Origin: Elusimicrobiota bacterium
GTDB taxonomy: Bacteria; Elusimicrobiota; Elusimicrobia; UBA1565; UBA9628
DNA length: 64,000 nucleotides
Assembly: GCA_016212855.1 (NCBI GenBank)
Contig: JACRDP010000010.1
Location: 174,622-238,621 of the forward strand
Direction: 5' to 3'
The position numbers and the translations under genes were made by a program. Positions within the stretch are counted from its first letter, which is position 1. Each line of letters begins with the position of its first letter. The notes beneath the pieces were generated by a model. That model had not been told where the DNA came from. It saw nothing but the letters and a program-made list of their open reading frames with translations, and did not search any database. Shown piece after piece: positions 6,110 to 63,200 of the stretch.

Positions 6110-6488
6110 ACCCTCTCCCTTCGGCCTTGGCCAGCCAGCCGCGCACGAAGGCGACCGCGTCTCGCGGCGAGCAGGGCTTGGCGAGGTAGCCGTCACAACC
6201 CGCCTCGAGGGTGCGGACCTCGTCGCCCGCCATCGCGTGCGCGGTGTAGGCGATGATCGGAGCCGCAAATCCCGGGACCTGCTGGAAACGGGGCGCGGCG
6301 TCCCAGCCGTCGAGACGGGGCATGGTCATGTCGAGCAGGACGAGATCGACCGGCGTCGCGGCGGCGGCGTCCAGGGCCTCGACGCCGTCTCGAGCGAGAA
6401 TGACGCTGAAGCCCGCGGCTTCAAGCGCGGAGCGCATGATGGAGCGGTTGTCGCAATCGTCCTCGGCGAGCAGAATTCGCTTAGACAT
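6084..6488 (-). CDS. Single-domain response regulator (receiver only)
   Basis: 134 aa. ILLAEDD, LVLLDMTMPRLDG, IIAYTA, LAKP. Confidence 0.85.
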   Translation of the reverse strand: MSKRILLAEDDCDNRSIMRSALEAAGFSVILARDGVEALDAAAATPVDLVLLDMTMPRLDGWDAAPRFQQVPGFAAPIIAYTAHAMAGDEVRTLEAGCDGYLAKPCSPRDAVAFVRGWLAKAEGRGYAPSALGR

Positions 6489-44928: not shown

Positions 44929-45984
44929 TCAGAGATCCTTCTTGCCGAACTTCCAGCCCAGCCCCAGCCGGAACGCCTCGCCGAGCGCGCCCAGGGGCTG
45001 AAACGCCAGATCGAAGGTGAAGCCGTTGACGCGCACCCCGGTGCCCACGGTGAGCCCCGATAGCGGGCCCAGGTCGGGAGCGCTGCGGCCCTGGAAGCCG
45101 ACGCGGCCGATGGCGTAGACGCCCTTGGACACGGTCCTCTCCCACTCCGCGCCCAGCTTCGCGTAGGGCCGCGCGTGCAGAGGGACGACGGCCTCGGCCG
45201 AGGTGATCACATGACCTTTCTCGGGCTCCCAGTCGTGCGCGAGCGCGAACGACAGCTCGAAAGGCAGCGGCTCGGAGTCCCGCAGATAATGCAGGCGCCC
45301 GCCCGCGTTGCGAAACGCCCACGCCATCGCCAGCGCGGGCCTCGTCGACGGGCGATAGACGACGCCGCCGTCGCCGGAGGCCGTGGTCGCCGAGCGCGTG
45401 CCCAGGGTCTCGCTGACGACCTTGATCGCCGCACCCGCCCGGAACGACCCGGTCCATGGCTCGCGCTCATCGTCTTCATAGCGCCGCCCGGTCCCGGCCA
45501 GATTCCACGTGTCGCGGAAATAGCCGCGGTCTTTCGTCACGTTGTCCTCCTCGGTGAAGGCGCGCGCGTAGCCGAAGGAGAAAGCCTCGGAGTGCGGCGA
45601 GAACGAGCCGCGCTGGATGCCGACGTTGTCGACCTGCGGGATAGACCCCTGGGAGAGCCGGGTGAAGGCGAAGCCGAGCGCGCCTCCGGACCAGTGCGCG
45701 GGAAAGGCCAGCGCCGCGTAGTCGTGGTGCACCGTGTCCGGGAGCTCCGCGCGCGCGTACGACAGCTCGAGGCCGCGCGCGGCCGCGATGCCGGCCGGAT
45801 TCCAGTACATGGCCTCGGGTCCTTCGGCGTTCGCGGTCACGGCCTCGCCCATCCCCAGGGCCCGCGCGCCGGCTCCGATCTTCAGGAACTGGGCGCCGTT
45901 GACGCCGGCGTCGGTCGCAAACGCCGCCAGCGCCGGCCGGGCCGGACCGAGGAGCAGCAGCGCGACGAGTGCCGGGCGCCTCAT
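44929..45984 (-). CDS. PorV/PorQ-family outer-membrane beta-barrel protein
   Basis: Trimmed from ORF 44929..46368 to ATG 45984 (ATGA overlap with the protease stop). 351 aa. Signal peptide MRRPALVALLLLGPARPALA, N-terminal GAQFLKIGAGARALGMGEAVTANAEGPEAMYWNPAGIA typical of PorV/PorQ, C-terminal aromatic-rich barrel end. Confidence 0.7.
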   Translation of the reverse strand: MRRPALVALLLLGPARPALAAFATDAGVNGAQFLKIGAGARALGMGEAVTANAEGPEAMYWNPAGIAAARGLELSYARAELPDTVHHDYAALAFPAHWSGGALGFAFTRLSQGSIPQVDNVGIQRGSFSPHSEAFSFGYARAFTEEDNVTKDRGYFRDTWNLAGTGRRYEDDEREPWTGSFRAGAAIKVVSETLGTRSATTASGDGGVVYRPSTRPALAMAWAFRNAGGRLHYLRDSEPLPFELSFALAHDWEPEKGHVITSAEAVVPLHARPYAKLGAEWERTVSKGVYAIGRVGFQGRSAPDLGPLSGLTVGTGVRVNGFTFDLAFQPLGALGEAFRLGLGWKFGKKDL

Positions 45985-48900: not shown

Positions 48901-50576
48901 TAGGGGGCGCCGGGGTAGGCCACCGGGTCCGTCGACAGGGCCGAGATGAGCATTTCGCCCGGAGCCGCGACGTCGGGCTGCTGACGTCCGTCGCGCGTCG
49001 GCCCCTGGGAGCTGAAGACGGACAGGTTCCCGGGCGTCGCCGTGTTGCCGAAGGCGTAGGGGCCGAGCCCGTCGATCGAGTCCCAAAATTTCCTCGAGAC
49101 GTACGAGGCGGCGCCGAAGACGTTCTGCGCGCACGCCGGCTCGCCGAGCGTCATCGTGTTGTCCACGTTCGAGCTGTAGCTCGTCGAGCTGATGTCCACC
49201 CAGCCGTCGACCCGGCCGGTGCCGCCGTTGCTCGTGCGCGCGATGGAGACGCTGACCGCCGCCGCGGTGATCCCGACGCCGGTGAGCCGTTCGATTTCGA
49301 CGTAGATCTGCTTGTGGCCGAGCGGATGCGCGGGATTGACGCCGTTGTAGATGCGGATCGTGTGCCCGCCCAGAAGGCCCCCCGTGCTCGAGCCGGCGAC
49401 GGCGAAAGTGCTGCCGCCGATGCCCGCCAGGCTCACCGTCGCCGTATAGGCGTCGCCGCCCGGATGCCAGAGTTCGACGTCGGCGAAGGCGGTCTGGTAG
49501 TCCACGCCGATGGTGAAGACGGTGGAGCCGCCGGAGCCGACGGTCGCGCTCGCGTGCGGCTTGTCGCCGCCCTCGTTGCCCATCGCGACGACGACGGGCG
49601 TACTCGCCGCGACGGCCGCGACCCCGGTCTCGAACGTCGAGGTGCCGTCATGGGGCCCGTACTGGGAGCCGAGGCTGAGGTTGATCACCGCGCGCTTGCC
49701 CGCCGCGGCCGCCTTCGCGACGATGTAGTTCATGCCGTTGACGATGCCGGTCAGCGAGAAGTCCGTGCGGACCATCACGATGTCCGCCGACGGCGCCATG
49801 CCCATGTACCCGCCCGTCTCGGTGCCGTCGCTGGCGGCGATGCCGGCGACGTGCGTCCCGTGACCGACGTCGTCGGTCGTGTTGATGACGACGACGCCGC
49901 CCTGTATCTTGCTGGTCAGCTGGGCGTTCGTGTATTCGGCGCCGTACGTGAAGCCCGCCGGAAACGGGCCGCTCGCGTGCGAGCTGATCGTCTGGTCCCA
50001 AATGCTGAGAATGCGCGAGGTGTTCGGACCGTCGTTGATGAAGTCCTTGTGCGTGTAGTCGATGCCCGTGTCCACGATGCCGACGACGACGCCGGCGCCC
50101 GTCGCGTTGGTCAGGTCGCTCGCGGCCGCGCCGTAGATCGCTCCCAGCGCGAGTCCGCTCGCGCTCGAGCTCGAGCGCACGACGTTCATCGACGGATGCG
50201 CGTAGACCGCGTGCTCGATCGCCTGCACGCGCCCGTCGAGGGCGAGCGCGTCGATCGCCGCGTCGCTCAACCGCGCCGCGACGACGTCGCCGGCCTGGCT
50301 GTCGAGTTCGGCGGACGGGAAGGCGGCCCGCAGAGCCGCGAGCGGCGTTCCCGGGGAGACGCGGATCAGCACGTTGCGCAACGGACCGGCCGCCGGCGCG
50401 CCGCCGCCGGCGCCGAGGGGGGAGTACCCGCCGCCGCCCCCGCCGCCTAAAGCGGCGGAAGCGCTTCTACGCGCGCGTAAACGCGCGTCGAGCTTCGAGG
50501 CCTGCGCCGCCGCGGACACCGACAAAGACGCGGCGAGCAGGGCCCCGAGCATCAACGGCATGCTCCGGATGACCAT
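45981..50576 (-). CDS. Secreted subtilisin-family (S8) serine protease with ~8 Fn3-like repeats and a FlgD-Ig/T9SS-type C-terminal domain
   Basis: 1531 aa. Signal peptide, triad motifs GIVDTGID, HGTHVAGIAAS, GTSMASPVVAG. Repeated ~95-aa units with (L/T)YY.R motifs roughly at nt 46590-48660. C-terminal ...GTKIRVLSLTGEQVW...GVLTWDGRNSHGRNCASGTYYAII. Confidence 0.85.
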   Translation of the reverse strand: MVIRSMPLMLGALLAASLSVSAAAQASKLDARLRARRSASAALGGGGGGGYSPLGAGGGAPAAGPLRNVLIRVSPGTPLAALRAAFPSAELDSQAGDVVAARLSDAAIDALALDGRVQAIEHAVYAHPSMNVVRSSSSASGLALGAIYGAAASDLTNATGAGVVVGIVDTGIDYTHKDFINDGPNTSRILSIWDQTISSHASGPFPAGFTYGAEYTNAQLTSKIQGGVVVINTTDDVGHGTHVAGIAASDGTETGGYMGMAPSADIVMVRTDFSLTGIVNGMNYIVAKAAAAGKRAVINLSLGSQYGPHDGTSTFETGVAAVAASTPVVVAMGNEGGDKPHASATVGSGGSTVFTIGVDYQTAFADVELWHPGGDAYTATVSLAGIGGSTFAVAGSSTGGLLGGHTIRIYNGVNPAHPLGHKQIYVEIERLTGVGITAAAVSVSIARTSNGGTGRVDGWVDISSTSYSSNVDNTMTLGEPACAQNVFGAASYVSRKFWDSIDGLGPYAFGNTATPGNLSVFSSQGPTRDGRQQPDVAAPGEMLISALSTDPVAYPGAPYVTPDGKHRVNRGTSMASPVVAGILAARLQWNPGITVAGLRSLLRTAAKTDGATGSVPNGAWGYGKVNASPQPVVPPTGLSGTALGVSSITWTWSAVTGADAYSLYYATNPASRLASVSALTYTQTALQTNTTTGVIVKGSGAGVDGPSGFASTSTYPAPPAALPTVTPHIDSVTVSWTVCPPSPAAVSCWGYAVEASTAANLTGTVFSATTLNRANSSLQVTGLQALTTYYFRQSTLNFYAAPAATGAVKSTTLTDLVAPINPSLSGATTSTIRFDWNTAGNAPGLTYLAEASTAASFSGTVLSSATKNAFAILSGLATNTSYYFRVQAVGGPYLIVGAPPTPTIATNPGLSTAPYSGVTQTGFTVAWSSGGNAGDTLYQADISVSASFVPVLASSITRNVFATFGGLTPNTLYYTRALAISHGGIASAYTTFGSTPTFVLDPTLPAAPFSNVGPDGFTFSFNGGGNPAGTVYVVRISTDPGFGALAGSVNITSTFTAFSGLNSNRLYYAAVAALNLSGSPTAFTAAVSTGTTVVAPGAPGAAVSARTTSSLSTSWSASTLGPGTQYVVQASSFANFSLIAGSSTTLNVTATVSALPANTLHYLRVRALSLNPPTPDGSWTAIGSGSTLANAPGAAGSPFTTIGVASVTVAWTALPLAPQPAACEGYLAELSVTPGFSPILRSVTATTAQSTATFTGLAYGTLYYMRVAALDWEGNPNYLVIGSTRTGTPMLSSGTVTGSGLTLTLPPSFLVAPAVNVTIPAGAFAPGTVVTMLAGVTQDLTNPPSAVAKLTALGSSVGIDISAGGIQPLKPVRLAMSYDPLLLPLGADPRKLLIARYDEASALWTLVPSAADTSANQIVATLDHFSSYSPFFAAAGGSVSDGVVFPQPWEVGEPNGAYGSQALTFANFPDGTKIRVLSLTGEQVWEGTAAANGVLTWDGRNSHGRNCASGTYYAIIEGGGARKVRRVVLIR

Positions 50577-50730: not shown

Positions 50731-51414
50731 TCAGTCGGCTTTTTCGGCGGAAATCAGCCCCATATCGATGCCCTTGACCACCGCTTCGGTGCGGTTGGAG
50801 ACGCTGAGCTTCTGGAACATGCTGTTGAGATGATTTTTGATCGTCTTGACGCTGCAGGTGAGCGACGAAGCGATCTCTTTGTTGGACTGCCCTTGTCCGA
50901 GGTTCGACAGAACCTTGATTTCGGTCTTGGTCAGCGCGACCAAGGAGGCCTCGGAGCTGGCCGAGCCCATCTGGCGCAGGCCGTCGATGAGCTTGCTCAT
51001 GACCGGCTGGGGAATCATCACGCCTTGATTGGCGAACGTTTTGAGCGCGTTGACGAGCTCGGCGGCGGGAAGCATCTTGGACAGGTAACCGTTGGCGCCG
51101 GCCTGGATGGCCTCCATCACGTGCGCCTCGTCTTCGTAGGAAGAAAGGATCAACACGTTGGTGGTCGGGCAGTCCTTGTGAATCTGCCTCGTGGCTTCGA
51201 TGCCGTCCATGTGGGGCAGTTTGATGTCGAGCAGGATCACGTTGGGCTTGAGCTTCTTGACGAGGCGCAGCGCCTCGCGCCCGTCGGCGGCCTCGGCGAT
51301 CACGGTAATGTTCTTCTCGTTCTCGAGAAGATCCTTGATGCCTTCGCGGAACAAGGTCTGATCGTCGGCGATGATGACGGAGATCTTTTTAGCGGGAGAA
51401 TTCTTCTTGGCCAT
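50731..51414 (-). CDS. NarL/FixJ (LuxR-type HTH) response regulator
   Basis: 227 aa. VIIADDQ, VILLDIKLPHMDG, LSKM, C-terminal LTKTEIKVLSNLGQGQSNKEIASSLTCSVKTIKNHL. Confidence 0.9.
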   Translation of the reverse strand: MAKKNSPAKKISVIIADDQTLFREGIKDLLENEKNITVIAEAADGREALRLVKKLKPNVILLDIKLPHMDGIEATRQIHKDCPTTNVLILSSYEDEAHVMEAIQAGANGYLSKMLPAAELVNALKTFANQGVMIPQPVMSKLIDGLRQMGSASSEASLVALTKTEIKVLSNLGQGQSNKEIASSLTCSVKTIKNHLNSMFQKLSVSNRTEAVVKGIDMGLISAEKAD

Positions 51415-51443
51415 GAATCAATACTACACAATTTAGCGTCGCG

Positions 51444-51473
51444 TTGTCGCGAACGTGCGCGTTGTGATACAAT
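51444..51473 (+). promoter_or_regulatory. Promoter for tRNA-Met: TTGTCG-N18-(TGa)TACAAT
   Basis: -10 at 51468-51473 with TG at 51465-51466, 11 nt before the tRNA 5' end. Confidence 0.5.
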
Positions 51474-51484
51474 GTCGGCCTTCC

Positions 51485-51556
51485 GGCGCCGTAGCTCAGT
51501 GGTAGAGCGGGCGTTTCATAAGCGCCATGTCGGAAGTTCGATCCTTCCCGGCGCCA
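51485..51556 (+). tRNA. tRNA with CAT anticodon (elongator Met, or Ile2 if lysidine-modified)
   Basis: Hand-folded. Acceptor GGCGCCG/CGGCGCC, D arm GCTC-AGTGGTA-GAGC, anticodon loop TTCATAA, T arm GGAAG-TTCGATC-CTTCC. The G1-C72 pair and the absence of a 3x G-C run in the anticodon stem argue against an initiator. Confidence 0.8.
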
Positions 51557-51578
51557 AGATTTGGAAGATGGTGAAGAC

Positions 51579-51610
51579 GCCCGGACATTGATCTAGGTCA
51601 ATGTCCGGGC
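51579..51610 (+). terminator. 13-bp perfect hairpin after tRNA-Met (terminator-like)
   Basis: GCCCGGACATTGA-tctagg-TCAATGTCCGGGC followed by tcgtcctatctgttt (weak T tract). Confidence 0.45.
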
Positions 51611-51665
51611 TCGTCCTATCTGTTTAAATCCGTTTGCTTCTTATAGAGAACTAAAGGAGATTACA

Positions 51666-51848
51666 ATGGCCGAAGCCCTCGTCGTCGCCAGCAAGGTGAA
51701 GAAGATCGTCAAGGAAGCGGGTCTGCGCACCGGCGGCGACTACCTCGACGCCCTCTCCGGCAAGATCGAAGCGACGGTCAAGTCCTCGATCCAGAAGGTC
51801 CAGGCCGAAGGAAAGAAGAAGACGCTCGGCGCCGAAGACCTCGCTTAA
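51666..51848 (+). CDS. Bacterial histone-fold protein (singlet histone, Bd0055/HBb-like)
   Basis: 60 aa, MAEALVVASKVKKIVKEAGLRTGGDYLDALSGKIEATVKSSIQKVQAEGKKKTLGAEDLA. Aligns without gaps to archaeal HMfB ([58 protein letters not shown]). Strong SD AGGAG 6 nt upstream. Confidence 0.75.
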   Translation: MAEALVVASKVKKIVKEAGLRTGGDYLDALSGKIEATVKSSIQKVQAEGKKKTLGAEDLA

Positions 51849-51859
51849 GGATCCGGCGA

Positions 51860-52849
51860 ATGCGCTCGTTCAGGGACTTCATGGAGTCCGCGCTCTACGA
51901 TCCTGAACGCGGCTATTATTCCCTGCGCGATAAATCCGCGGACTTCTACACCGCGCCCGAGCTTCACGCCGCGTTCGGCTCCGTCCTGGCCGACCGGCTC
52001 GCGGTCCTGCTCGAGAAGATTCGGCCGGAAGGTCCGCTGTCGCTCGTCGAAGCGGGCTGCGGGGACGGGACCCTGGCCTGTCAGGTTGCCCGCCGCCTCC
52101 GCGAAAAATACCCTGGCCTCGCGGCCCGGATTTCTTTCATTCTGGTGGAACGCGGGCGAAAGGACCTGACGACGGCCGCGCGCCGCCTCAACGCCTTCGG
52201 CGTCAAGGTGACGGCCTACACCGAGATCGCGAAGATTCCGCAGTTCTCCGGCGTCCTGTACTCCAACGAACTGCTCGACGCGCTCCCGGTGCACCTCCTC
52301 GAGTCACGGGGCGGGGAGATCAAGGAAGTGTTCGTCGACGAGAGCGGGCGGGAAATTCTCGCCCCGCTGTCCCGCCCCGAGCTTGCGGGTCCCGCCGCCG
52401 CGCTCACGAGCCTGTCCGACGGCGAGCGGCACGCGGTCTCGCTCGAAGCCCGCGCTTGGATCGCCTCCGCCGCATCTAAAGTGAAGGAAGGCTTCATCGT
52501 CTCGATCGACTACGGCAAGCGCTTCGCCGCGGGGACGCCGAATCCTCCGCGCGCGTTCCATCGCCACGCGATCGAGACCGAGCTGACGCGCGAGCCCGGC
52601 GCCCAGGACCTGACCGCCTCCGTGGACTTCGAGGCGGTGATCGCCGCGGGCGCCGATGCGAAGCTGGAACTCGTGTCCTTCAATACCCTCTCCAAGTTCA
52701 TGATCGACGGCGGCCTGCTCGCCTGGCTCGAGGCCGCGGCCGGCGACGATAGCGCGGCCTACCGCGAACGCGCCAAGCTCAAGACTTTGATCCACCCCGA
52801 GGGAATGGGCGAGGTCTTCAAGGTCCTTATACAGAGGAAAGAGAAATGA
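51860..52849 (+). CDS. SAM-dependent methyltransferase of the MidA/NDUFAF7 (DUF185, COG1565) family
   Basis: 329 aa. FRDFMESALYDPERGYYS, DFYTAPELHAAFG, LVEAGCGDGTLA, SNELLDALPVH, IDYG. ATGA overlap with nuoA. Confidence 0.75.
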   Translation: MRSFRDFMESALYDPERGYYSLRDKSADFYTAPELHAAFGSVLADRLAVLLEKIRPEGPLSLVEAGCGDGTLACQVARRLREKYPGLAARISFILVERGRKDLTTAARRLNAFGVKVTAYTEIAKIPQFSGVLYSNELLDALPVHLLESRGGEIKEVFVDESGREILAPLSRPELAGPAAALTSLSDGERHAVSLEARAWIASAASKVKEGFIVSIDYGKRFAAGTPNPPRAFHRHAIETELTREPGAQDLTASVDFEAVIAAGADAKLELVSFNTLSKFMIDGGLLAWLEAAAGDDSAAYRERAKLKTLIHPEGMGEVFKVLIQRKEK

Positions 52850-53202
52850 TGAGCGCCTACGCCGTGGTCTACGCCTTCGTCATCGTCGCGGTGGCCTTCG
52901 CCGCGGTCACCCTCGGCGCGGCCAAGGTCCTGCGCGCGAGCGTGCCCTACGCGCGCAAGGAAAGCACCTACGAGTGCGGCATTCCCGCGACCGGTTCGAC
53001 CGAGGTGAAGCTCAATATCCGCTTTCACGTTTTCGCCCTGCTGTTCGTGCTCTTCGACGTCGAAGTCCTGTACGTCTACCCTTGGGCGGTGACCGCGCGT
53101 GAGCTCGGTCCGATCGCCTTAATTGAAATGGGCATTTTCATCGCGATCCTGCTCCTGGGCCTGGCGTTCGCCTGGCGCAAGGGCGCGCTGAGCTGGGAGT
53201 AA
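52846..53202 (+). CDS. nuoA: NADH-quinone oxidoreductase subunit A
   Basis: 118 aa. YECGI...[12 protein letters not shown]. Confidence 0.9.
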
Positions 53203-53206
53203 AACG

Positions 53207-53755
53207 ATGGGAATGATTCTCGAGAAGCTGCCGGGATTGACGAAGGGGCTCCCCGGAGGGGAGCTGCTCCTGACGACTTCGGACTACTTCATCGACCTGG
53301 GCCGCCGCCAGTCGATGTGGCCGATGACCTTCGGCCTCGCCTGCTGCGCCATCGAGATGATGGCCTCCTACGCCTCGCGTCTCGACTTCGACCGCATGGG
53401 CGTCATTCCGCGCGCCAGCCCGCGCCAGGCCGACGTGATGATCGTCGCCGGCACCGTCTGCAAGAAGATGGCCGAGCCGATCCTCGAGATCTACCACCAG
53501 ATGCCCGAGCCCCGCTTCGTGATCTCGATGGGCTCCTGCGCCAACTGCGGCGGCCCTTACTACGACTCCTACTCCGTGGTGAAGGGTGTCGACCGCATCG
53601 TGCCCGTCGACGTGTATATCGCGGGCTGCCCGCCTCGCCCCGAAGCCCTGCAGTACGCCGTCGTCAAGCTGCAGGAAAAGATCGCCAAGATGTCGCTCAA
53701 GAAAGGCCTCGCGACCTCCCAGCAGGAAAAGGGAAGCCGGGACATCAACGCTTAA
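53207..53755 (+). CDS. nuoB: NADH-quinone oxidoreductase subunit B
   Basis: 182 aa. [30 protein letters not shown] (N2 cluster ligands). Confidence 0.92.
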
Positions 53756-53759
53756 CAAC

Positions 53760-54326
53760 ATGACCCAAGACGAACTGTTCGCCAAACTGCAGGCCAAGTT
53801 TCCGAAGCTCGAGAAGGCCGCTTTACCGGTCAAGGACTATCTCACGGTCCGCCTCGCCTCGAAGGGCGGACTCGTTCCGCTCGCTTCTTTCCTTAAGGAC
53901 TCCGGCTTCGACATCCTCGACATGCTCACCGCGACCGACCTGCTCGGCCCGGTCGACATGAAGGGCTTCATCCGCCAGCAGAACTTCAACCCTTTCCTGC
54001 CCGACGGCGCCACGCCCGAAATCGAGTCCGCGGCCACGCCGGGTTATCCCTACAAGCCCGCGATGGACCTGCTCTGGTCCTGGATCTCCGTCGAGCACAA
54101 GTTGCGCGTCATCGTCCGCCTCGAGCAGCCGCGCGAAGCCACGTCGGTGCCGAGCCTCACGCCTCTGTTCAAGAGCGCGGACTGGCAGGAGCGCGAGACC
54201 TTCGACCTGCTCGGCATCAAGTTCGAGGGGCATCCGAACCTGACCAAGATCCTGACGCCCGATTTCACCGTCGGCCATCCCCTGCGCAAAGACTACGTGC
54301 ACGTTAAGGACCGCTACGATGAGTAA
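53760..54326 (+). CDS. nuoC: NADH-quinone oxidoreductase subunit C
   Basis: Trimmed from ORF 53586..54326 to ATG 53760. 188 aa. [22 protein letters not shown]. Confidence 0.85.
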
Positions 54327-55464
54327 CGCGCTGATGCAGACGCACGACGCCTCGACGATGGCGGGGCTCAAGACCGACCAGCTCTTCATCAACCTCGGCC
54401 CCCAGCACCCGTCCACGCACGGCGTGCTGCGCATCGGCCTCACGATCGAGGGCGAGGTGATCGTCAAGGCCGTCCCCGACATCGGCTACCTGCATCGCGG
54501 CACCGAGAAGCTCTCCGAGGTCCGCAACTACCACCACTGCGTCGTGCTCACCGACCGCTGGGACTACGTCTCCGCGATGCCGAACAATCTCGTGTTCTGC
54601 CTGGCCGCCGAGAAGCTCGCCGGAGTCAAGACGACTCCGCGCGCCGACGCGCTGCGCGTGATCATGTGCGAGATGAACCGCATCGCCTCGCACCTTTTGT
54701 TCTTCGGGACGTACGGCATCGACCTCGGCGCCTACACGCCCTTCCTGTACGCCTTCCGCGAGCGTGAGATGGTCCTCGACCTCTTCGAGATGCTGTGCGG
54801 GGCGCGCCTGACCTACAACTATATCCGGTTAGGGGGCGTCATGGTCGACGCGAGCCCCGAGTGGCTCAAACGCACGTCGGAGTTCCTCGAGTACTTCAAG
54901 CCGCGCCTCGACGAGTACGACACGCTCCTGACCTACAATCCCATCTTCATGGCCCGCACCAAGGGCATCGGCATCGTGAGCGCGGCCGAGGCCAAGGACT
55001 GGGCGCTGTCCGGCCCGAACCTGCGCGGCTCCGGCGTGAACTACGACGTACGCAAGTTCGCGCCGTACTCCGGCTACGAGAACTACGACTTCGAAGTTCC
55101 TCTCGGCAAGGACGGCTCCTGCTGGGACCGCTACTTCTGCCGCGTCTCCGAGATGCGCCAGTCCGTGCGCATCGTGTCGCAGGCGATCGCGAAGCTTCCC
55201 GAGGGCCCGTTCCAGGCCTCCGGCTTCGCGAAAGTCCCCAAGCCCATCGCCGGCGAGTCGTACGCCAACGTCGAGGCCTCGCGCGGCGACCTCGGCATCT
55301 ATCTCGCCTCCGACGGCGGAATCTCGCCCTACCGCATGCACGTGCACGCCCCGTCCTTCATCAATCTCGCGATGCTCCAGGACAAGCTCGTCGGCATGAA
55401 GGTCTCCGACGTGATCGCGTTGCTCGGCTCCATCGACATCGTCCTCGGCGAGGTGGATCGCTAA
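54319..55464 (+). CDS. nuoD: NADH-quinone oxidoreductase subunit D
   Basis: 381 aa. [30 protein letters not shown]-terminus. Confidence 0.92.
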
Positions 55465-55465
55465 C

Positions 55466-56851
55466 ATGAGCGACAAGCCCGAAGATAAGAAGCCGGAGCC
55501 CGCCAAGACTGCGCCCGTTCCCGCTGCAGCGCCTGCCGCCGCCGCTCCTGCCGCCCCTAAGCCGGCGGCTCCGAAGTACGTCCCGCCCGAGCCGGTGTTG
55601 AACCGCAAGAACGGCCGCCTCATCGAGGACCGCTTCACGACCTGGCCCACCCAGGTCTTCATCAACCGCTGGTCGCGCAGCGGCTACCAGGCCGGCGCGG
55701 CGATGCTCACGGGCATATTGCTCGGCCTCGCCGTCACCGGCGGGGTCGTCGGCGAACTCGCCAAGTGGGCGGATAAGTTTTACGCCCTGCTGACCGCCGT
55801 GGCCGCCGCTAAAGGCCTCCCCGTGCTGGCCGTGGAAATCGCCTGGGTGGCGATCAAGGTCCTCATCGTCCTGCACATCGTCCTCATCAACGGCCTGTGG
55901 TCCATTTGGTGGGAGCGCAAGATCTCGGCTCACATCCAGTCCCGCGTCGGCCCGACGTACGCCGGCAGCCCGTCGGGCTGGAACTTCCATGGCTGGGCGC
56001 AGACGGCGATCGACGGCATCAAGCTGCTTCTTAAGGAAGACGTCACGCCCGCCGCCGCCGACAAGTGGGTTCACGCGCTGGCCCCGGGCCTCGTGGTGGC
56101 GCCCTGCATCATCGCCTTCGCGCCGGTGCTCTTCGGCGACAACATGGCCGCCGCGAGCCTCGACATCGGCACTTTGTATATCTTCGCCTTCGCCGGCATC
56201 TCGGTAATCGGCATCGTGATGGCGGGCTGGGCCTCGGGAAACAAGTACTCGCTCCTCGGCGGCCTGCGCGGCGCCGCGCAGATCGTCAGCTACGAGCTGC
56301 CCCGCGGCTTCTCCGTGGTGCCCGTGCTGATGTTCGCCGGCTCGCTCGATCTGCAGGTGATCTCCAACGCTCAGGCCGGTTATTGGCATGGGATACCGCG
56401 CTGGTTCGTGTTCTACCCCGTCGTCGGCCAGCTCGCCTTCGTGATCTTCCTGATCGCCTCGGTGGCCGAGACCAACCGCACGCCCTTCGATATCCCCGAG
56501 GCGGAGTCCGAGCTCGTCAGCGGCTTCCACACCGAGTACTCGGGCATGAAGTGGTCCATTTTCTTCCTGGCCGAATACGCTTACGTGCTCCTCGGCTCCT
56601 TCCTTCTCGCGACCTTCTTCCTGGGCGGGGGAGCTTCTCCGATCAACTCCGTCCCGTTCACCTTGGTTCCGAGCTGGATGTGGATGCTCGCCAAGGCGAT
56701 GCTCATGATGTTCGTGTTCCTATGGATCCGCTGGACGCTCCCGCGCTTCCGCGTCGACCAGCTCATGGACTTCACCTGGAAGTTCCTGCTCCCGTGGAGC
56801 TTCGTGAACATCGCGATCGCCGGGCTCTATCTCGCGTTTTGGCTGAAATGA
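55466..56851 (+). CDS. nuoH: NADH-quinone oxidoreductase subunit H with ~110-aa N-terminal extension
   Basis: 461 aa. Canonical WERKISAHIQSRVGP appears only at about aa 150. Preceded by a Pro/Ala/Lys-rich segment and an extra hydrophobic helix. Confidence 0.85.
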   Translation: MSDKPEDKKPEPAKTAPVPAAAPAAAAPAAPKPAAPKYVPPEPVLNRKNGRLIEDRFTTWPTQVFINRWSRSGYQAGAAMLTGILLGLAVTGGVVGELAKWADKFYALLTAVAAAKGLPVLAVEIAWVAIKVLIVLHIVLINGLWSIWWERKISAHIQSRVGPTYAGSPSGWNFHGWAQTAIDGIKLLLKEDVTPAAADKWVHALAPGLVVAPCIIAFAPVLFGDNMAAASLDIGTLYIFAFAGISVIGIVMAGWASGNKYSLLGGLRGAAQIVSYELPRGFSVVPVLMFAGSLDLQVISNAQAGYWHGIPRWFVFYPVVGQLAFVIFLIASVAETNRTPFDIPEAESELVSGFHTEYSGMKWSIFFLAEYAYVLLGSFLLATFFLGGGASPINSVPFTLVPSWMWMLAKAMLMMFVFLWIRWTLPRFRVDQLMDFTWKFLLPWSFVNIAIAGLYLAFWLK

Positions 56852-56858
56852 GGACCCG

Positions 56859-57371
56859 ATGATCAAATACTTCGCCAACGTTTTCAACAACTCGCGAGCG
56901 ATCGTGCAGGGCCACTGGATCACGCTCAAGTACATGTTCAAGCCGGCCGTGACGATCCACTACCCCGATGAGAAGCTGGTGCCCTTCGAGAAATTTAGGG
57001 GGGCGCTCCTATTTGATCAGCAGGTCTGCATCTCCTGCAACCTTTGCGTGAAGGCCTGCCCGTCCAACTGCATCCAGCTCGAGAACGCGAAGAACGAGAC
57101 CGGCAAGAAGATCGCCAAGGTCGAGTGGTACTCCATCGACTTCGGCAAGTGCAATTTCTGCCGCCTGTGCGAGGAGGCCTGCCCCACCAAGCCCAAGTCC
57201 GTGTGGCACTCCCTCGACTACGAGGTGATCTTCGTCAAGCGCGACGAGATGGTGCGCTGCTGGAAGAAGGATTTCCCGTTCGTCGGCAAGTACTTCGACC
57301 GCAAGACCCAGGACTTCATGGACGCCGAGGGCCAGGTCAGCATTCACGACGTGCAGCCCAGGAGATCCTAA
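56859..57371 (+). CDS. nuoI: NADH-quinone oxidoreductase subunit I (2x[4Fe-4S])
   Basis: 170 aa. CISCNLCVKACP and CNFCRLCEEACP. Confidence 0.9.
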   Translation: MIKYFANVFNNSRAIVQGHWITLKYMFKPAVTIHYPDEKLVPFEKFRGALLFDQQVCISCNLCVKACPSNCIQLENAKNETGKKIAKVEWYSIDFGKCNFCRLCEEACPTKPKSVWHSLDYEVIFVKRDEMVRCWKKDFPFVGKYFDRKTQDFMDAEGQVSIHDVQPRRS

Positions 57372-57372
57372 G

Positions 57373-57867
57373 GTGCTTGATCAGATCGTCTTCTACTCGC
57401 TGTCCGTCCTCGTCCTGCTTTCGGCCCTCGGAGTCGTCCTGCAGCGCAACGCCGTGCACTCCTCGTTGTTCCTGGGGCTCTCTCTCGCCGGCGTCGCGGG
57501 GCTGTTCGCCTCGCTCGGCGCGGATTTCCTGTTCGGCGCGCAGATCATGGTCTACGTCAGCGGCATCGCGGTACTCGTGATGTTCGTCGTCATGTTGCTC
57601 GGCCGCGCGTCGGATCTGCACCTGCGCCAGGTCAACGACCGCTGGATGGCGGCCCTGCTGGTCTGCGCCGTCGCTTCGGTCGGCCTGCTCAAGATCGCGC
57701 GCCTCTCCTCGGCGACCGTCGCGACCGTCGCGGCCCGCCCCGGCACGCACGACATCGGCCGCCTGTTCCTGGGCCAGTGGCTGGTGCCCTTCGAGCTGAT
57801 CTCGCTGGTGCTGCTCGCCGCCTTGCTCGGCGCCGTCTTCTTCACCCGCACGGAGAACGCTTCATGA
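57373..57867 (+). CDS. nuoJ: NADH-quinone oxidoreductase subunit J
   Basis: 164 aa. GTG start. Hydrophobic, position and pattern (YVSGIAVLVMFVVML) typical. Confidence 0.85.
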   Translation: MLDQIVFYSLSVLVLLSALGVVLQRNAVHSSLFLGLSLAGVAGLFASLGADFLFGAQIMVYVSGIAVLVMFVVMLLGRASDLHLRQVNDRWMAALLVCAVASVGLLKIARLSSATVATVAARPGTHDIGRLFLGQWLVPFELISLVLLAALLGAVFFTRTENAS

Positions 57868-58181
57868 ACGCGCCCCTCACGCTCGCCCACTACATGACGG
57901 TCGCCGGGCTTCTCTTCCTCATCGGCGTCTTCGGCGCGCTTACACGCCGCAACATCATCGGCATCCTGATGTCGATCGAGCTCATGTTCAACGCCGCCAA
58001 CATCAACCTCGCCGCCTTCGACCGCTTTCTGCACCCCGAGGGCGTGACCGGCCAGGCGCTGGCGCTGTTCGTCATGACCGTCGCGGCCGCCGAGATCGTC
58101 GTCGGCCTCGCCTTGCTGCTCGCGATTTACCGCGGCACGGACACCGTGTACGCCGAAGACTTCAACCTCCTCAGGGGCTGA
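57864..58181 (+). CDS. nuoK: NADH-quinone oxidoreductase subunit K
   Basis: Trimmed to ATG 57864 (ATGA overlap with nuoJ). 105 aa. SIELMFNAANINLAAF, AAAEIVVGLALLLAIYR. Confidence 0.9.
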   Translation: MNAPLTLAHYMTVAGLLFLIGVFGALTRRNIIGILMSIELMFNAANINLAAFDRFLHPEGVTGQALALFVMTVAAAEIVVGLALLLAIYRGTDTVYAEDFNLLRG

Positions 58182-58185
58182 TGAC

Positions 58186-60309
58186 ATGATCGAACACGCC
58201 TATCTGATTCCTCTGATTCCCCTGGCCGCCTCGGCGCTGATGCACTTCGGCGCGAAGGAAGACCCGCATTCGCCCGCGCCGTGGATCGGCGTCGTCGCGA
58301 TGGCGATCTGTCTGGGAATGTCCCTGAGCATCTTGTCGGCCGTGGCGTCCGGCTCCGTGGCCGTCCCTTACGAGCACAACTGGCCCTGGTTCTCCTTCGC
58401 CGCCTCGATCGGCGGCAAGTCGTTCATCTACGACATGCCCGTCGGCGTGCTCATCGACGGCCCGGCCGCCGTTTTGCTCGTCGTGGTGACCCTCGTCAGC
58501 CTGATGGTGCAGATCTACTCGATCGCCTATATGCACGACGACACGCGCTACATGCGCTACTTCGGCTTCGTGTCTTTCTTCACGGCCTCCATGCTCGGCC
58601 TCGTCGTCTCGAGCAACCTGCTCGTCGGCTTCATGAGCTGGGAGCTGATGGGATTGGCGTCCTACCTCTTGATCGGCTTCTGGTTCGAAAAGGACGGCCC
58701 CACCGAGGCGCAGAAAAAGGCGTTCATGACGACCAAGCTCGGCGACTCCGGCCTGTACGTGGCGCTGCTGTTCCTCTTCGCCAAGGTCGGCTCGTTCCAG
58801 CTCACCCAGATCCACCACTTCTACGACAAGGGCTACATGCCCGCCGCGGCGGCCGCCGCGATCGCGATCGGGCTCCTGTTCGGGGCCATGGGCAAGTCCG
58901 CCCAGTTCCCGCTGTTCATCTGGCTGCCCGACGCGATGGAAGGTCCCACGCCCGGCTCCGCTCTGATCCACGCCGCGACCATGGTCGCGGCCGGCATCTT
59001 CCTCGTCTCCCGCACGTACTTCTGCTTCCTGGCCGCGCCCCAGGTTATGCACGCCGCGGCCTGGATCGGCTGCGCCACGGCCTTTCTCGCCGCCGCGATG
59101 GCGCTCGTCAGCTACGACATCAAGCGCGTGCTGGCCTTCTCCACCGTGTCCCAGCTGGGCTTTATGATGTGCGCGCTCGGCGTCGGCGGCTACACCGCCG
59201 GACTCTTCCACCTGACCACGCACGCCTTCTTCAAGGCCCTGCTCTTCCTCGGCGCGGGCTCGGTGATCCACTCCGTGCACACCAACGACCTGCGGCTTAT
59301 GGGCGGCTTGTCGAAGAAGATGATCGTCTCCTTCTTCACCATACTCGCCGCGATCGCGGCCATCTCGGGCATCCCCTTCACCTCGGGCTACTACTCCAAG
59401 GACATGATCCTGGCCAACATCTGGCATAGCGGCGACCGGCCGCTATTCTTCATAATGCTGTTCACCGCGCTGATGACCGCGTTCTACATGTCGCGACTGT
59501 TCATCCTGGCCTTCTGGGGGGAGGCGCGCGACCACGAGAAGCACCACCACGCGCACGAGTCGCCCTTCCTGATGACGGGCCCGCTCGTCCTGCTCGCCTT
59601 CCTCGCGCTGACCTCAGGCTTCATGCTCGACCGCCACGGCCTCGTCTACAAGCTCCTGCCCAAGCCGACGATCTCGGTGATGCCGGGCGAGGTAGCCCGA
59701 GAGCACGCCCCTCCCGCGACCTTAGTCTCTGCGACCATGCCCGCCGAAGGGGGGGAGCACGCTGCCGCGCCCTCCGAGGCGAAGGCTGAGGAGCACGCCC
59801 CGGCCCATGAGGCCGCCGCCGAGCACGGCGAGCATCACGAAGGCCACCTCCCTCACGCCCTGCACCTGGCTTTGCCGTTCCTCGTCCTGGGCTCGATCGG
59901 CTTCGCCTTCTTCCTTTACAAGGGCCCCGACTACGCGGCCGCCGAGTCGCTCAAGGCCACGTTCGCGCCCGTGTTCACCGTGCTCGACCGCCGCTGGTAC
60001 CTCGACGACGCCTTCGACCTGCTGGTCGTTTTCTGCGACAAGGTCGCCGCGCTGGCCTTCTGGATCGACGCCAACGTCGTCGACCGCGTGTTCGTCGACG
60101 GCTGGGGGCTGCTCATGCGCATCGTCTCCGAGATCAGCAACCTCATCGACGCGCTGTTCGTCGACCGCACCGTCGACGGCTTCGGCGGCCTGAGCCTCGA
60201 CCTCGGCGTGGGCCTGCGCGGCCTCGTCAAAGACGGCCAGGTGCAGGAATATCTGATGTACGTCGCGATCGCCTTCAGCCTCGCGGCGACCTTGATTCTG
60301 ACCCGATAA
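58186..60309 (+). CDS. nuoL: NADH-quinone oxidoreductase subunit L (with His/Glu/Ala-rich insert)
   Basis: 707 aa. WELMGLASYLLIGFW, HAATMVAAGIFL, HAFFKALLFLGAGSVIH. Confidence 0.9.
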   Translation: MIEHAYLIPLIPLAASALMHFGAKEDPHSPAPWIGVVAMAICLGMSLSILSAVASGSVAVPYEHNWPWFSFAASIGGKSFIYDMPVGVLIDGPAAVLLVVVTLVSLMVQIYSIAYMHDDTRYMRYFGFVSFFTASMLGLVVSSNLLVGFMSWELMGLASYLLIGFWFEKDGPTEAQKKAFMTTKLGDSGLYVALLFLFAKVGSFQLTQIHHFYDKGYMPAAAAAAIAIGLLFGAMGKSAQFPLFIWLPDAMEGPTPGSALIHAATMVAAGIFLVSRTYFCFLAAPQVMHAAAWIGCATAFLAAAMALVSYDIKRVLAFSTVSQLGFMMCALGVGGYTAGLFHLTTHAFFKALLFLGAGSVIHSVHTNDLRLMGGLSKKMIVSFFTILAAIAAISGIPFTSGYYSKDMILANIWHSGDRPLFFIMLFTALMTAFYMSRLFILAFWGEARDHEKHHHAHESPFLMTGPLVLLAFLALTSGFMLDRHGLVYKLLPKPTISVMPGEVAREHAPPATLVSATMPAEGGEHAAAPSEAKAEEHAPAHEAAAEHGEHHEGHLPHALHLALPFLVLGSIGFAFFLYKGPDYAAAESLKATFAPVFTVLDRRWYLDDAFDLLVVFCDKVAALAFWIDANVVDRVFVDGWGLLMRIVSEISNLIDALFVDRTVDGFGGLSLDLGVGLRGLVKDGQVQEYLMYVAIAFSLAATLILTR

Positions 60310-60325
60310 TCGCCAGGAGAATGGA

Positions 60326-61786
60326 ATGAACATGCTCAGCCTCGTCACCTTCGCGCCGCTCGCCGGCGCGCTGATCATCCTCTGCATCCCCAAGGAAAAG
60401 GAGAAGGCCATCCAGGCCGTCGCCTTCCTCTTCGCGGGCATATCCTTGATCGCCTCTTTGGCCATGCTCCCCGGCTTCAGCCGCGGCACGCACGAGATGC
60501 AGTTCGTCGAGCGCTTCGCCTGGATTCCCTCGTTCGGCGTCCAGTACTTCATGGGCGTGGACGGCCTCTCCTACCCGCTCGTGCTCCTCACGACCTTCAT
60601 GAGCGTGATCGCGCTCGTCGGTTCGCTCGGCATCGAGAAGCGGGTCAAGGAGTACTTCTTCTGGTTCCTCGTGCTCGAGGTCGGCATGCTCGGCGTGTTC
60701 TGCGCGCTGGACCTGATCCTCTTCTACGTGTTCTGGGAGCTCACCCTCGTGCCCATGTACTTCCTCATCGGCGTCTGGGGAGGTCCCCGCAAGGAATTCG
60801 CCGCGATCAAGTTCTTCCTCTATACCTTGACCGGCTCGGTGTTCATGCTCCTGGCGATCCTCGCGCTGTACTTCGCGAGCACCGGCCCGGCGCACACCTT
60901 CGACATGCTCGAGCTCGCCAAGATGACGGGCGGCTGGGACCGCCACTTCCAAATTCTGGTCTTCTTGGGCCTGTACTTCGGCATGGCGATCAAGGTGCCC
61001 GCGTTCCCGTTCCACACCTGGCTGCCGCTGGCTCACGTCGAAGCGCCGACCGCCATCTCCGTCATCCTGGCCGCGGTTCTCCTCAAGATGGGCGTCTACG
61101 GCCTGTTGCGCATCTCCTATTCGCTGGCGCCGCTGGGCTTCCAGTGGTTCCTGCCGGCGCTCATCGTCATCGCGGTCATCAACATCGTTTACGGCGCGCT
61201 GTGCGCCATGGCGCAGACCGACATGAAGAAGATGGTCGCCTACTCGTCGGTCAACCACATGGGCTACTGCCTGCTCGGCATCGCCGGCATGACCACCGCG
61301 GGCTTTACCGGCGCGGTGTTCCAGATGCTGACGCACGGGATCATCACGGGCGCGCTGTTCCTTCTCGTGGGCGTGATCTACGACCGCGCCCATACGAGAG
61401 ATATCTCGGCCTTCGGCGGTTTGGCGGTGAAGCTTCCGGTCTACGCCGCCTTGATGTCTTTGACCTGCTTCGCCTCGCTCGGCCTGCCCGGCCTCGCCGG
61501 CTTCATCGGCGAGTTCCTGTGCTTCCTGGGCGCGTTCCAGGCCTGGAAGCTCGCGGCGACGATCTCGGTACTCGGCATCATCGCCACCGCGGCGTTCTTC
61601 TTGCGCATGATGCAGAAGGTGTTCCTCGGCAAATTCAACGAGAAGTGGGCCGACCTGCCGGACATGACCGCGCGCGAGCTGATCTCGATCGTGCCGCTGG
61701 CGGCGCTGACCGTGCTGTTCGGCGTGTACCCGAAGTGGCCGCTCGACCTCATGAACGTCACGTTGACGCACATGCTCGGCAAATAA
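60326..61786 (+). CDS. nuoM: NADH-quinone oxidoreductase subunit M
   Basis: 486 aa. FWELTLVPMYFLIGVWGG, HTWLPLAHVEAPTA. SD AGGAGA upstream. Confidence 0.9.
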   Translation: MNMLSLVTFAPLAGALIILCIPKEKEKAIQAVAFLFAGISLIASLAMLPGFSRGTHEMQFVERFAWIPSFGVQYFMGVDGLSYPLVLLTTFMSVIALVGSLGIEKRVKEYFFWFLVLEVGMLGVFCALDLILFYVFWELTLVPMYFLIGVWGGPRKEFAAIKFFLYTLTGSVFMLLAILALYFASTGPAHTFDMLELAKMTGGWDRHFQILVFLGLYFGMAIKVPAFPFHTWLPLAHVEAPTAISVILAAVLLKMGVYGLLRISYSLAPLGFQWFLPALIVIAVINIVYGALCAMAQTDMKKMVAYSSVNHMGYCLLGIAGMTTAGFTGAVFQMLTHGIITGALFLLVGVIYDRAHTRDISAFGGLAVKLPVYAALMSLTCFASLGLPGLAGFIGEFLCFLGAFQAWKLAATISVLGIIATAAFFLRMMQKVFLGKFNEKWADLPDMTARELISIVPLAALTVLFGVYPKWPLDLMNVTLTHMLGK

Positions 61787-61787
61787 A

Positions 61788-63200
61788 ATGAACAACCTGC
61801 GCCTGCTGCTCCCGGAGACCGTCCTCGCGACTTTGGCGCTCGTCATCGCGTTCGCCGATCTCGTCGTGCCGGCCAAGCGCGCGCGGGTCTTGTACCACCT
61901 CGCCTGGCTCTCCGCCGCGGGCGTGCTTGCCTGGATCGCCTTCACGATGGGTGACGCCTCCACGCACGGCGTCGGCACGCTTTGGAGCGTGGACCCGTTC
62001 AGCCAGTTCTTCAAGCTGACGACCTTGCTGACCTGCGTGCTCTGCCTTCTGCTCGGCCTGGACTACGCCGAGCTCCCGGAGAATCAGGCCGGGACGTTCT
62101 CCGCGCTGATGCTGCTGTCGACGGCGGGGCTCATGTATCTCGTCTCCGCGACCGACCTCCTGCTCATCTTCGTGGCGCTCGAGCTCGTCTCGATCTCCTC
62201 GTTCATCCTCGCGGGCTTCGAGCGGGGGAACCCGAAGTCCAACGAAGGCTCGATGAAGTATTTCCTGTTCGGAGCGTTCTCGTCGGCCGTCATGGTGTTC
62301 GGCATCTCGCTGTACTTCGGCGCGACGGGCACGACGCACTTGGCGGCCTCCGCCGCGGCGCCCGGCCCGATGCTGATCTTGGGCCTGGTTCTGATCTTGC
62401 TCGGCTTCGGCTTCAAGGCTTCGCTGGCGCCCATGCACTTCTGGGTGCCCGACGCGTACGAGGGCGCCCCGACGCCGGTGACCACCTTCCTGTCCGTCGC
62501 CCCCAAGCTGGCGACGTTCGCCGCGCTGGCCCGGGTGTTCGGCGCGATCTTCCCGCTGCAGGCCTACGACCTGACCTTGCTCTTCTCGATCATGGCCGCG
62601 CTCACGATGACGATCGGAAACTTCACCGCGATGTTCCAGACCGACGTCAAGCGCCTGCTCGCCTACTCCTCGATCGCGCAGGCCGGCTACCTGCTCATCG
62701 GCCTCGCCGTCGGCACGCCGCTCGGGCGGGAAGGCGTGATGCTCTACTCCTTCGTGTACGTCGCGATGAACGTCGGCGCGTTCGCCGTCGTGCAGGCGGT
62801 CGGCTCGGCCAAGGGCAGCTACGACCTCTCCGCCTTCGACGGCCTGTGCAAGCGCCGCTTGGGCCTGTCCCTCTCGCTGATGTTCTGCCTGCTCTCGTTG
62901 GCCGGCATCCCGCCGCTGGCCGGCTTCATGGGCAAGCTGTACATCTTCTCGGCCGCGGTGCAGACGGGCCAGTGGTGGCTCGCCGTCGTGGGCGTGCTCA
63001 ACAGCGTCGTGTCCGTCTACTACTACTTCGCCATCGCGCACCGGATGTTCTTCAAGGAGCCCTCCGACGACGCCGCGATCCCGGTCGGCGCCTACATCTA
63101 CGGCGGCGTGGCCGTGGCGGTGGTCGGCGTGCTGCTGTTCGGCGTCAACCCCGAGCCGCTGATCGCGGGCGTGCGCGCCTCGACTCAGATTCTGCCTTAG
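61788..63200 (+). CDS. nuoN: NADH-quinone oxidoreductase subunit N
   Basis: 470 aa. ALELVSISSFILAGF, MHFWVPDAYEGAPTPVT. Confidence 0.9.
   Translation: MNNLRLLLPETVLATLALVIAFADLVVPAKRARVLYHLAWLSAAGVLAWIAFTMGDASTHGVGTLWSVDPFSQFFKLTTLLTCVLCLLLGLDYAELPENQAGTFSALMLLSTAGLMYLVSATDLLLIFVALELVSISSFILAGFERGNPKSNEGSMKYFLFGAFSSAVMVFGISLYFGATGTTHLAASAAAPGPMLILGLVLILLGFGFKASLAPMHFWVPDAYEGAPTPVTTFLSVAPKLATFAALARVFGAIFPLQAYDLTLLFSIMAALTMTIGNFTAMFQTDVKRLLAYSSIAQAGYLLIGLAVGTPLGREGVMLYSFVYVAMNVGAFAVVQAVGSAKGSYDLSAFDGLCKRRLGLSLSLMFCLLSLAGIPPLAGFMGKLYIFSAAVQTGQWWLAVVGVLNSVVSVYYYFAIAHRMFFKEPSDDAAIPVGAYIYGGVAVAVVGVLLFGVNPEPLIAGVRASTQILP

Follow-up and report, generated by a model that had tools for sequence, protein, structure and literature searches.

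A probable HBb-type truncated histone encoded ahead of the complex I operon in Elusimicrobia

Introduction

Bacterial histones were established as major chromatin proteins in 2023-2025, and only two of them, HBb (Bd0055) of Bdellovibrio bacteriovorus and HLp of Leptospira perolatii, have been characterised. Elusimicrobiota is named as a histone-bearing phylum in Hocher 2023, Hu 2024, and Schwab 2024, and the latter two assign it HBb-like "bacterial dimer" histones. According to Schwab 2024, the truncated class has an alpha3 helix of 3-4 residues and an alpha2 helix about 4-5 residues shorter than that of nucleosomal histones, and alpha3 histones follow a single-gene-operon pattern. Here, we describe a gene for a 60-amino-acid (aa) protein from a 64,000-nucleotide (nt) stretch of DNA, referred to as the window, of an Elusimicrobiota bacterium (assembly GCA_016212855.1, contig JACRDP010000010.1, positions 174,622 to 238,621). 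The gene lies at 51666-51848 on the forward strand, and its product is in all likelihood an alpha3-truncated bacterial singlet histone of the HBb/Bd0055 "bacterial dimer" type. An initial annotation of the window had proposed a histone-fold protein at this site; its observation is partly confirmed and its interpretation partly supported by the analysis below.

Results and discussion

Coding status and relationship to HBb

The open reading frame (ORF) matches the initial annotation exactly in coordinates and translation, and the strong Shine-Dalgarno (SD) sequence reported there, AGGAG with a 6-nt spacing to the ATG, is also present. Relatives were scanned in one genome per GTDB species, which gave 120 genomes with a relative, of which 80 loci were kept; these and the window copy make up a set of 81 orthologues. 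All 81 ORFs are intact and 58-60 aa long, 80 of them start with ATG, 74 are preceded by an SD-like motif, and a median pairwise ratio of nonsynonymous to synonymous substitution rates (dN/dS) of ~0.25 indicates purifying selection. The ORF is thus a real gene, whose product has a computed mass of 6.2 kDa, an isoelectric point (pI) of 9.35, and a net charge of +3.

A phmmer search against all PDB chains retrieved four sequences only, namely two constructs of HBb (8FVX, 8CMP; E 1.4e-7), HTkC (9F2C; E 2.6e-6), and HLp (9QT0; E 7e-6). An alignment of 37 Elusimicrobia relatives served as the basis of a clade profile and of all invariance counts given below. When compared with the PDB, this profile recovered HBb at E 6.4e-11 and no other kind of protein, with 45 bits for HBb, 39 for HLp, and 36 for HTkC. 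Profile-profile comparison by hhalign with 24 Bdellovibrionota homologues of HBb gave 97.8% probability, E 6.7e-13, and 45% identity. The likeness to the N-terminus of Bd0055/HBb, which the initial annotation had pointed out, proved correct, as HBb begins MAEVLVVTSKVKK. The proposal of a singlet histone-fold protein with truncated alpha3 related to Bd0055/HBb is likewise borne out by the significant matches to HBb, HLp, and HTkC and by the predicted fold. All named homologues come from metagenome-assembled genomes of Elusimicrobia/Elusimicrobiota. In a search of representative proteins, the clade profile matched 435 clusters at E <=0.001; many of these are proteins of 118-134 aa that the profile matches twice, as apparent natural tandem doublets, and a small number are very long and are matched at repeated short segments.

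Predicted structure and conserved residues

The AlphaFold2 (AF2) model built from the 37-sequence alignment reached a predicted local distance difference test score (pLDDT) of 73, and that built from a 55-sequence alignment covering both the Elusimicrobia and the HBb clades reached 84, with two helices (residues 2-17 and 24-48) followed by one turn at 56-58. The predicted boundaries are alpha1 2-17, L1 18-23, alpha2 24-48, L2 49-55, and alpha3 56-59, that is, the histone-fold order of alpha1, loop, long alpha2, loop, and alpha3. When the model was compared with the PDB by Foldseek, the top six matches comprised HBb (template modelling score, TM, 0.76), HLp (0.71), and HTkC (0.70), at a probability of at least 0.99, and almost all of the lower matches were histone-fold proteins as well (H4, H2B, NF-Y, TAFs, and MHF). 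The truncation of helix 3 at the C-terminus, noted in the initial annotation, appears in the model as a single turn; with a predicted alpha3 of residues 56-59 or 56-58 and a predicted alpha2 of 25 residues, the protein falls, as judged from sequence and model, within the alpha3-truncated singlet histones as Schwab 2024 defines them.

The Elusimicrobia and HBb clades have eleven invariant positions in common (M1, V7, S9, K10, K12, K16, T22, L30, K52, T53, and D58). The S9-K10 motif and the alpha1 lysines, by which Hocher 2023 and Schwab 2024 recognise such histones, are all present, with S9, K10, K12, and K16 invariant and K13 kept in at least 90% of the 37 relatives. Six of the ten main DNA-backbone contacts of HBb, as known from crystals and molecular dynamics, are found in S9, K10, K12, K16, K52, and T53, while T22 and G24 align with the L1 DNA contacts T27 and G29 of HLp. 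The hydrophobic residues of the HLp dimer interface are also kept (V11, V15, L30, I34, I42, and L59).

K51-K52-T53 is invariant in all 37 relatives as part of the motif KKTLGxED. The Arg of the Arg-Asp "RD clamp", within the motif RKTxxxxD, has been described for HMfB, HBb, and HLp. The present clade keeps K52, T53, and D58 of this motif, but all 37 sequences carry Lys in place of the clamp Arg, which is a conservative change. R21 in L1 is invariant and lies at or beside the position of the archaeal "sprocket" Arg; the two are aligned by BLASTP and stand one residue apart in hhalign.

Relationship to HMfB and the Pfam histone models

The initial annotation had aligned the protein without gaps to the archaeal histone HMfB. 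The best gapless register with HMfB contains only 10 identities in 60 positions, and the gapless partner is HBb. BLASTP needs two gaps to align the protein with HMfB at 27% identity and a pairwise E of 0.013, and hhalign gives an insignificant probability of 5.5%. None of these three comparisons gives a significant direct link to HMfB, and the gapless alignment was rejected. KEAG and KKT stand 35 residues apart in both the protein and HBb, versus 39 in HMfB, and the "hallmark RKT" motif claimed for the protein is KKT. Even at E 10, the clade profile retrieved none of the nucleosomal histones of the PDB. With its truncated alpha3 and no significant similarity, the protein does not fit the definition of nucleosomal archaeal histones (HMfB/HTkA).

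The HMMER comparison with PF00808 that had been suggested as a check gave no match even at E 10, and scans of the protein against Pfam, NCBIfam, and PHROGs gave no meaningful match. PF00808, PF00125, and PF09123 match none of the 37 clade members. In the control, PF00808 and DUF1931 match all 24 HBb-clade proteins and PF00125 matches most of them; since the HBb clade is recovered in full by PF00808, the negative result reflects a sensitivity limit of the models. As the clade is missed by them, its members are recorded in public databases as "hypothetical" or "phage-related protein".

Genomic context

The features of the locus are collected in Table 1. The initial annotation had called the ORF stand-alone. 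Its stop codon, however, is only 11 nt from the next start, which makes it the first cistron of an operon; its position between a same-strand tRNA-Met(CAT) and the nuo genes was given correctly.

Table 1. Features of the window around the histone gene and two further ORFs
Feature	Position	Strand	Basis and remarks
991-aa ORF	33970-36945	+	no Pfam match at E <=0.001
1531-aa secreted-looking S8 subtilase	45981-50576	-	multiple fibronectin type III repeats
Divergent NarL/LuxR-type response regulator (Response_reg + GerE)	50731..51414	-	Pfam
Candidate sigma-70-like promoter TTGTCG-18-TACAAT, with TG	51444..51473	+	consensus match, just upstream of the tRNA
tRNA-Met(CAT)	51485..51556	+	ARAGORN and Rfam; position 1 paired with its 3' partner, hence not initiator-like
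Conserved 14-bp hairpin in tRNA trailer/histone leader	51579..51610	+	inside longer predicted stem 51558-51630; T-rich stretch after
Shine-Dalgarno AGGAG, 6-nt spacer to ATG	51655..51659	+	sequence; SD-like motif in 74/81 orthologous loci
Histone gene, 60 aa, probable alpha3-truncated HBb-type bacterial singlet histone	51666..51848	+	ORF, homology, AF2, Foldseek, purifying selection
Methyltransf_28 (PF02636; NDUFAF7/MidA-like) gene	51860..52849	+	Pfam; 11 nt after histone stop; 4-nt overlap with nuoA
11-subunit complex I operon nuoA-B-C-D-H-I-J-K-L-M-N	52846..63200	+	Pfam

Gene order was counted in the 80 species-level loci. The arrangement of the window, histone followed by Methyltransf_28 and nuoA, recurs in 54 of them, and in another four the contig ends after the histone and Methyltransf_28 genes, so that Methyltransf_28 is the next gene in 58 loci. 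A UbiE/COQ5-type methyltransferase stands between the histone gene and nuoA in 15 loci, and nuoA follows directly in three. Altogether, the histone gene immediately precedes either nuo or a methyltransferase gene that leads into nuo in 76 of the 80 loci; nuoA begins no more than ~1.3 kb past the histone gene in 72, and the four further loci end inside the methyltransferase gene. This synteny persists at histone identities down to 56% and nuoA identities down to 41%, and the linkage was measured solely as the probability of nuo given the histone. The gap between the histone and methyltransferase genes has a median of 12 nt, and most junctions measure 3-25 nt while three overlap, which makes co-transcription of the histone gene with the downstream genes close to unavoidable. 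Within the clade of the window, the junction TAAGGA-N7-ATG between the histone gene and the next gene is conserved. A specific pairing of the histone with Methyltransf_28 was considered and is weakened by the 15 loci with a UbiE-type replacement and the three with nuoA directly adjacent.

The nuo operon of the window lacks nuoEFG as judged by Pfam, and a paper on Elusimicrobia genomics reports an N-module-less complex I for groundwater lineages. According to PMC3829151, eukaryotic NDUFAF7 dimethylates an arginine of the NuoD homologue while complex I is being assembled; the integration of a bacterial NDUFAF7 homologue in a nuo operon is a notable observation in its own right. The remaining four of the 80 loci have no nuo gene within 6 kb downstream of the histone gene. 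At L058, a GNAT acetyltransferase gene (930-1445) begins 13 nt past the histone stop; L055 carries a Pyr_redox_2 flavoprotein gene (6211-7581); at L047, a 136-aa protein is followed by a class-III aminotransferase (region 6211-7851); and the next ORF at L067 has no Pfam match.

On the upstream side, a same-strand tRNA-Met(CAT) was found within 1.3 kb in 54 of the 75 loci with enough upstream sequence, mostly 22-161 nt from the histone ATG, and no other type of tRNA occupies this position in the 75 loci. In 14 loci the tRNA and the histone gene are separated by 22-62 nt only, too little to accommodate both a terminator and a promoter. The promoter-like sequence listed in Table 1 is a candidate promoter for the tRNA, possibly with read-through into the histone gene. 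The spacer of the window folds at -47.5 kcal/mol (z = -7.1), and the hairpin within it is kept in the close clade (L008-L031, L037, L062, L063, L068, and L079). Across 21 loci, five of the 13 pairs have changed on both sides in a compensatory manner; the apex TTGAY-N4-RTCAA is almost invariant, and the G+C-rich base covaries. An Rfam scan of 51300-52000 returned the tRNA only, so the hairpin belongs to no Rfam family. It is probably a terminator or processing hairpin, and it could act as a terminator of the tRNA, as an RNase processing stem, or as a leader element.

The more distant loci have their own clear promoter, TTGACA-N17-TATAGA, before the histone gene. Given the hairpin in the clade of the window and the separate promoter in the distant loci, co-transcription of tRNA and histone gene is probably lineage-dependent. 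Mixed tRNA-protein operons are exemplified by thrU-tyrU-glyT-thrT-tufB of E. coli. The two arrangements are alike in that a highly expressed protein gene stands right after a same-strand tRNA gene, and they differ in the hairpin and T-rich tail that the clade of the window has between the tRNA and the histone gene.

The divergent response regulator has an orthologue in 37 of 64 loci. With a median identity of 89%, it is more conserved than nuoA (82%), the histone (78%), and the methyltransferase (60%); a role as regulator of the tRNA-histone-nuo unit is speculative. The large subtilase gene beyond it has a counterpart in L003, where a similar large fn3 protein occupies the same relative position.

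Interpretation of the gene order

In the simplest view of this arrangement, one strong housekeeping promoter region serves the tRNA, the histone gene, and the respiratory operon alike. The strong SD of the histone gene would then raise histone output over that of the downstream genes, whose junctions carry weak SD sequences only. The "strongly expressed context" that the initial annotation derived from the strong SD and the tRNA linkage is only suggestive. Such a layout, behind a tRNA-Met and as the first cistron of a nuo operon, is unusual for a nucleoid protein, and the tight linkage to nuo poses a stoichiometry problem for an abundant one. The conserved Elusimicrobia operon also contradicts the single-gene-operon statement for alpha3 histones. 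In three Bdellovibrionota contexts, the HBb genes form monocistronic units that converge with ligA; no nuo gene lies nearby, and the called genes include no tRNA. The Bdellovibrionota loci L088-L093 have a conserved histone-ligA neighbourhood with gatCAB beyond ligA, and their upstream genes are variable.

Proposed function and alternative explanations

By analogy with HBb, the protein is most likely a dimeric, non-specific DNA-binding nucleoid protein. Two chains of 6.2 kDa would interlock through the histone-fold handshake, and the resulting dimer would bind DNA without sequence specificity through backbone contacts along the minor groove. These contacts would be made by the first turn of alpha1 (S9, K10, K12, and K16) and by the paired L1/L2 loops (R21-T22-G23-G24 and K52-T53). 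The expected outcome would be bending and compaction of DNA, as demonstrated for HBb, and not nucleosome-like wrapping. Use as an abundant nucleoid protein, as the initial annotation proposed, is a reasonable inference from the same analogy. A tblastn search with E. coli HU/IHF queries found none of these proteins in the 64-kb window or in the flanks of the loci.

Several points weigh against this view. DNA binding, dimer state, and abundance would all be extrapolated from a protein of 40-45% identity, and the clade escapes detection by the Pfam histone models. The HBb clamp residue R51 is an invariant Lys and the second-ranked HBb DNA contact, R57, is an invariant Glu, so the DNA-binding geometry may differ. 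An L1 loop of HLp length together with an HTkC-like end of alpha2 makes a dimer-only state insecure. Tight co-transcription with nuo fits badly with the very high copy number of a nucleoid protein, and membership in this operon could point to an operon-specific role.

Regarding the identity of the gene, an ORF that is very short, has no Pfam or NCBIfam match, and whose relatives are labelled hypothetical in databases might be taken for a product of chance or for an untranslated nuo leader. The 81 intact orthologues with their conserved ATG and SD sequences, the dN/dS of ~0.25, and the significant matches to solved structures speak against this, and a spurious ORF was rejected on the basis of the orthologues, the dN/dS, and the PDB matches, leaving the idea with virtually no credibility. 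Equally negligible is the chance of a canonical HMfB-like nucleosomal histone that forms hypernucleosomes. The common KT...ED motif in loop L2 and a weak local similarity agree with it; against it, alpha3 is one turn where about ten residues would be expected, alpha2 falls short by about four residues, the C-terminal helix and the His for a four-helix-bundle tetramer are missing, and neither the profile search at E 10 nor hhalign connected the protein with nucleosomal histones. A histone of the same fold and DNA-related role that forms a face-to-face (FtF) tetramer and wraps or bridges DNA like HLp and HTkC deserves more attention, though we consider it unlikely. HLp and HTkC score slightly under HBb in both bits and TM, the L1 loop has the length of HLp and its pattern G-x-x-T-x-G-D, the end of alpha2 (KVQAEGKKKT) is similar to that of HTkC (KRAQAEGRKT), and Lys occupies the position aligned with the FtF tetramer Arg almost invariably, two sequences having Arg there. 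On the other hand, of the three residues conserved in bacterial FtF tetramers (R49, N53, and R55 in HLp) none is literally kept, their places being taken by K44 or Q46, E48 or K50, and K51, although this is a weak negative as the alignment near the end of alpha2 is ambiguous by 1-2 residues. Schwab 2024, moreover, puts Elusimicrobiota sequences in the dimer-only class, and HBb is the best match in both sequence and profile searches.

A further alternative starts from the operon, namely that the protein was recruited to respiration as a complex I accessory or assembly factor, as a regulator of the operon, or as a substrate of the NDUFAF7-like methyltransferase. It is favoured by the position upstream of nuo in 76 of 80 loci irrespective of whether Methyltransf_28, UbiE, or no gene intervenes, by the junctions of 3-25 nt or overlaps, which imply co-translation units, and by the invariant R21 in L1. 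The location of the Bdellovibrionota HBb genes outside any such operon and the description of alpha3 histones as single-gene operons in Schwab 2024 point in the same direction. However, the residues in common with HBb are those that contact DNA, four loci have no nuo within 6 kb downstream and three of these keep the upstream tRNA-Met, and Pfam revealed no similarity to known complex I accessory subunits. The adjacency to nuo also outlasts the replacement or loss of Methyltransf_28, which argues against a specific histone-methyltransferase pair. We therefore regard recruitment to respiration as rather improbable, a shade below the tetrameric alternative, and a functional tie of the histone to respiration in Elusimicrobia beyond a general nucleoid role is to be doubted to the same degree. 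If such a link were true, the histone could couple chromatin state to respiratory gene expression; arginine methylation, e.g. of R21, would amount to a bacterial histone modification system; and as an accessory or assembly factor of the complex I without N-module the protein could, for instance, offer a basic patch on which an acidic electron donor docks.

Previous records and significance

The initial annotation had placed the protein in a new high-GC lineage. Since all named homologues are from Elusimicrobia and the clade is already in the catalogue of Hocher 2023, this does not hold. Supplement files 3 and 19 of that study (table and alignment) contain the clade with its RTGGD and KKTLG motifs, and OGS00328.1 of Elusimicrobia bacterium RBG_16_66_12, listed in its singlet histone table, is identical to the protein of locus L029. 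No sequences with the clade motifs are present in the accessible part of the Schwab 2024 supplements. The protein is thus a further orthologue of a catalogued but experimentally uncharacterised clade, and it represents no new family or phylum.

The linkage of tRNA-Met, histone, and nuo is unmentioned in Hocher 2023, Schwab 2024, and the Elusimicrobia genomics paper, and the order tRNA-Met, histone, methyltransferase, and 11-subunit complex I across the phylum seems undescribed. This conserved operon is a potentially useful and undescribed feature, as are the substitutions by which the clade departs from HBb at the clamp Arg and R57. The Elusimicrobia branch differs at two residues that are important in HBb, and being invisible to Pfam it is annotated "hypothetical" throughout. 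The gene order also raises the question of whether, and in what way, the production of a nucleoid protein is coupled to that of a respiratory complex through co-expression.

Comparison with described histones

HMfB-type histones (PF00808) share with the protein the order helix-loop-helix-loop-helix and the KT...ED of L2, and their L1 sprocket Arg falls on or beside an Arg of the protein. They differ in an alpha2 that is about four residues longer and in a full alpha3 with the four-helix-bundle interface, which is missing here.

HLp (PDB 9QT0-2) and HTkC of Thermococcus kodakarensis (9F2C) are closer, as both have the truncated fold and match the model at TM 0.70-0.71. The length of L1 and its T-x-G pattern of DNA contacts are the same in HLp, while the QAEG end of alpha2 is common to HTkC and the Elusimicrobia protein. 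In contrast, the tetramer residues R49, N53, and R55 of these FtF histones are unconserved, their sequence scores are below that of HBb, and the HLp gene stands in an SMC/MAP locus and not in a nuo operon.

HBb/Bd0055 of B. bacteriovorus (PDB 8FVX, 8CMP, 9EZZ, and 9F0E) is the best match in sequence, profile, and fold, and aligns without gaps at 40-45% identity. The two proteins resemble each other in length, at about 60 aa, and in pI (9.35 versus 9.25, the latter for residues 1-59 of HBb), and they share the N-terminus MAExLVVxSKVKK, a short alpha2, a one-turn alpha3, and identical residues at S9, K10, K12, K16, K52, T53, and D58. The differences lie in the clamp Arg R51 and in R57 of HBb, which are replaced by an invariant Lys and an invariant Glu, respectively, in the Elusimicrobia clade, in the L1 loop (RTGGD versus MNTSA in HBb), and in the C-terminus, where the Elusimicrobia protein ends at residue 59-60 without the IDHI tail of HBb. 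Relatives of HBb are found by PF00808, unlike those of the Elusimicrobia clade. Finally, HBb genes are monocistronic and convergent with ligA, whereas the Elusimicrobia gene heads a tRNA-linked nuo operon.

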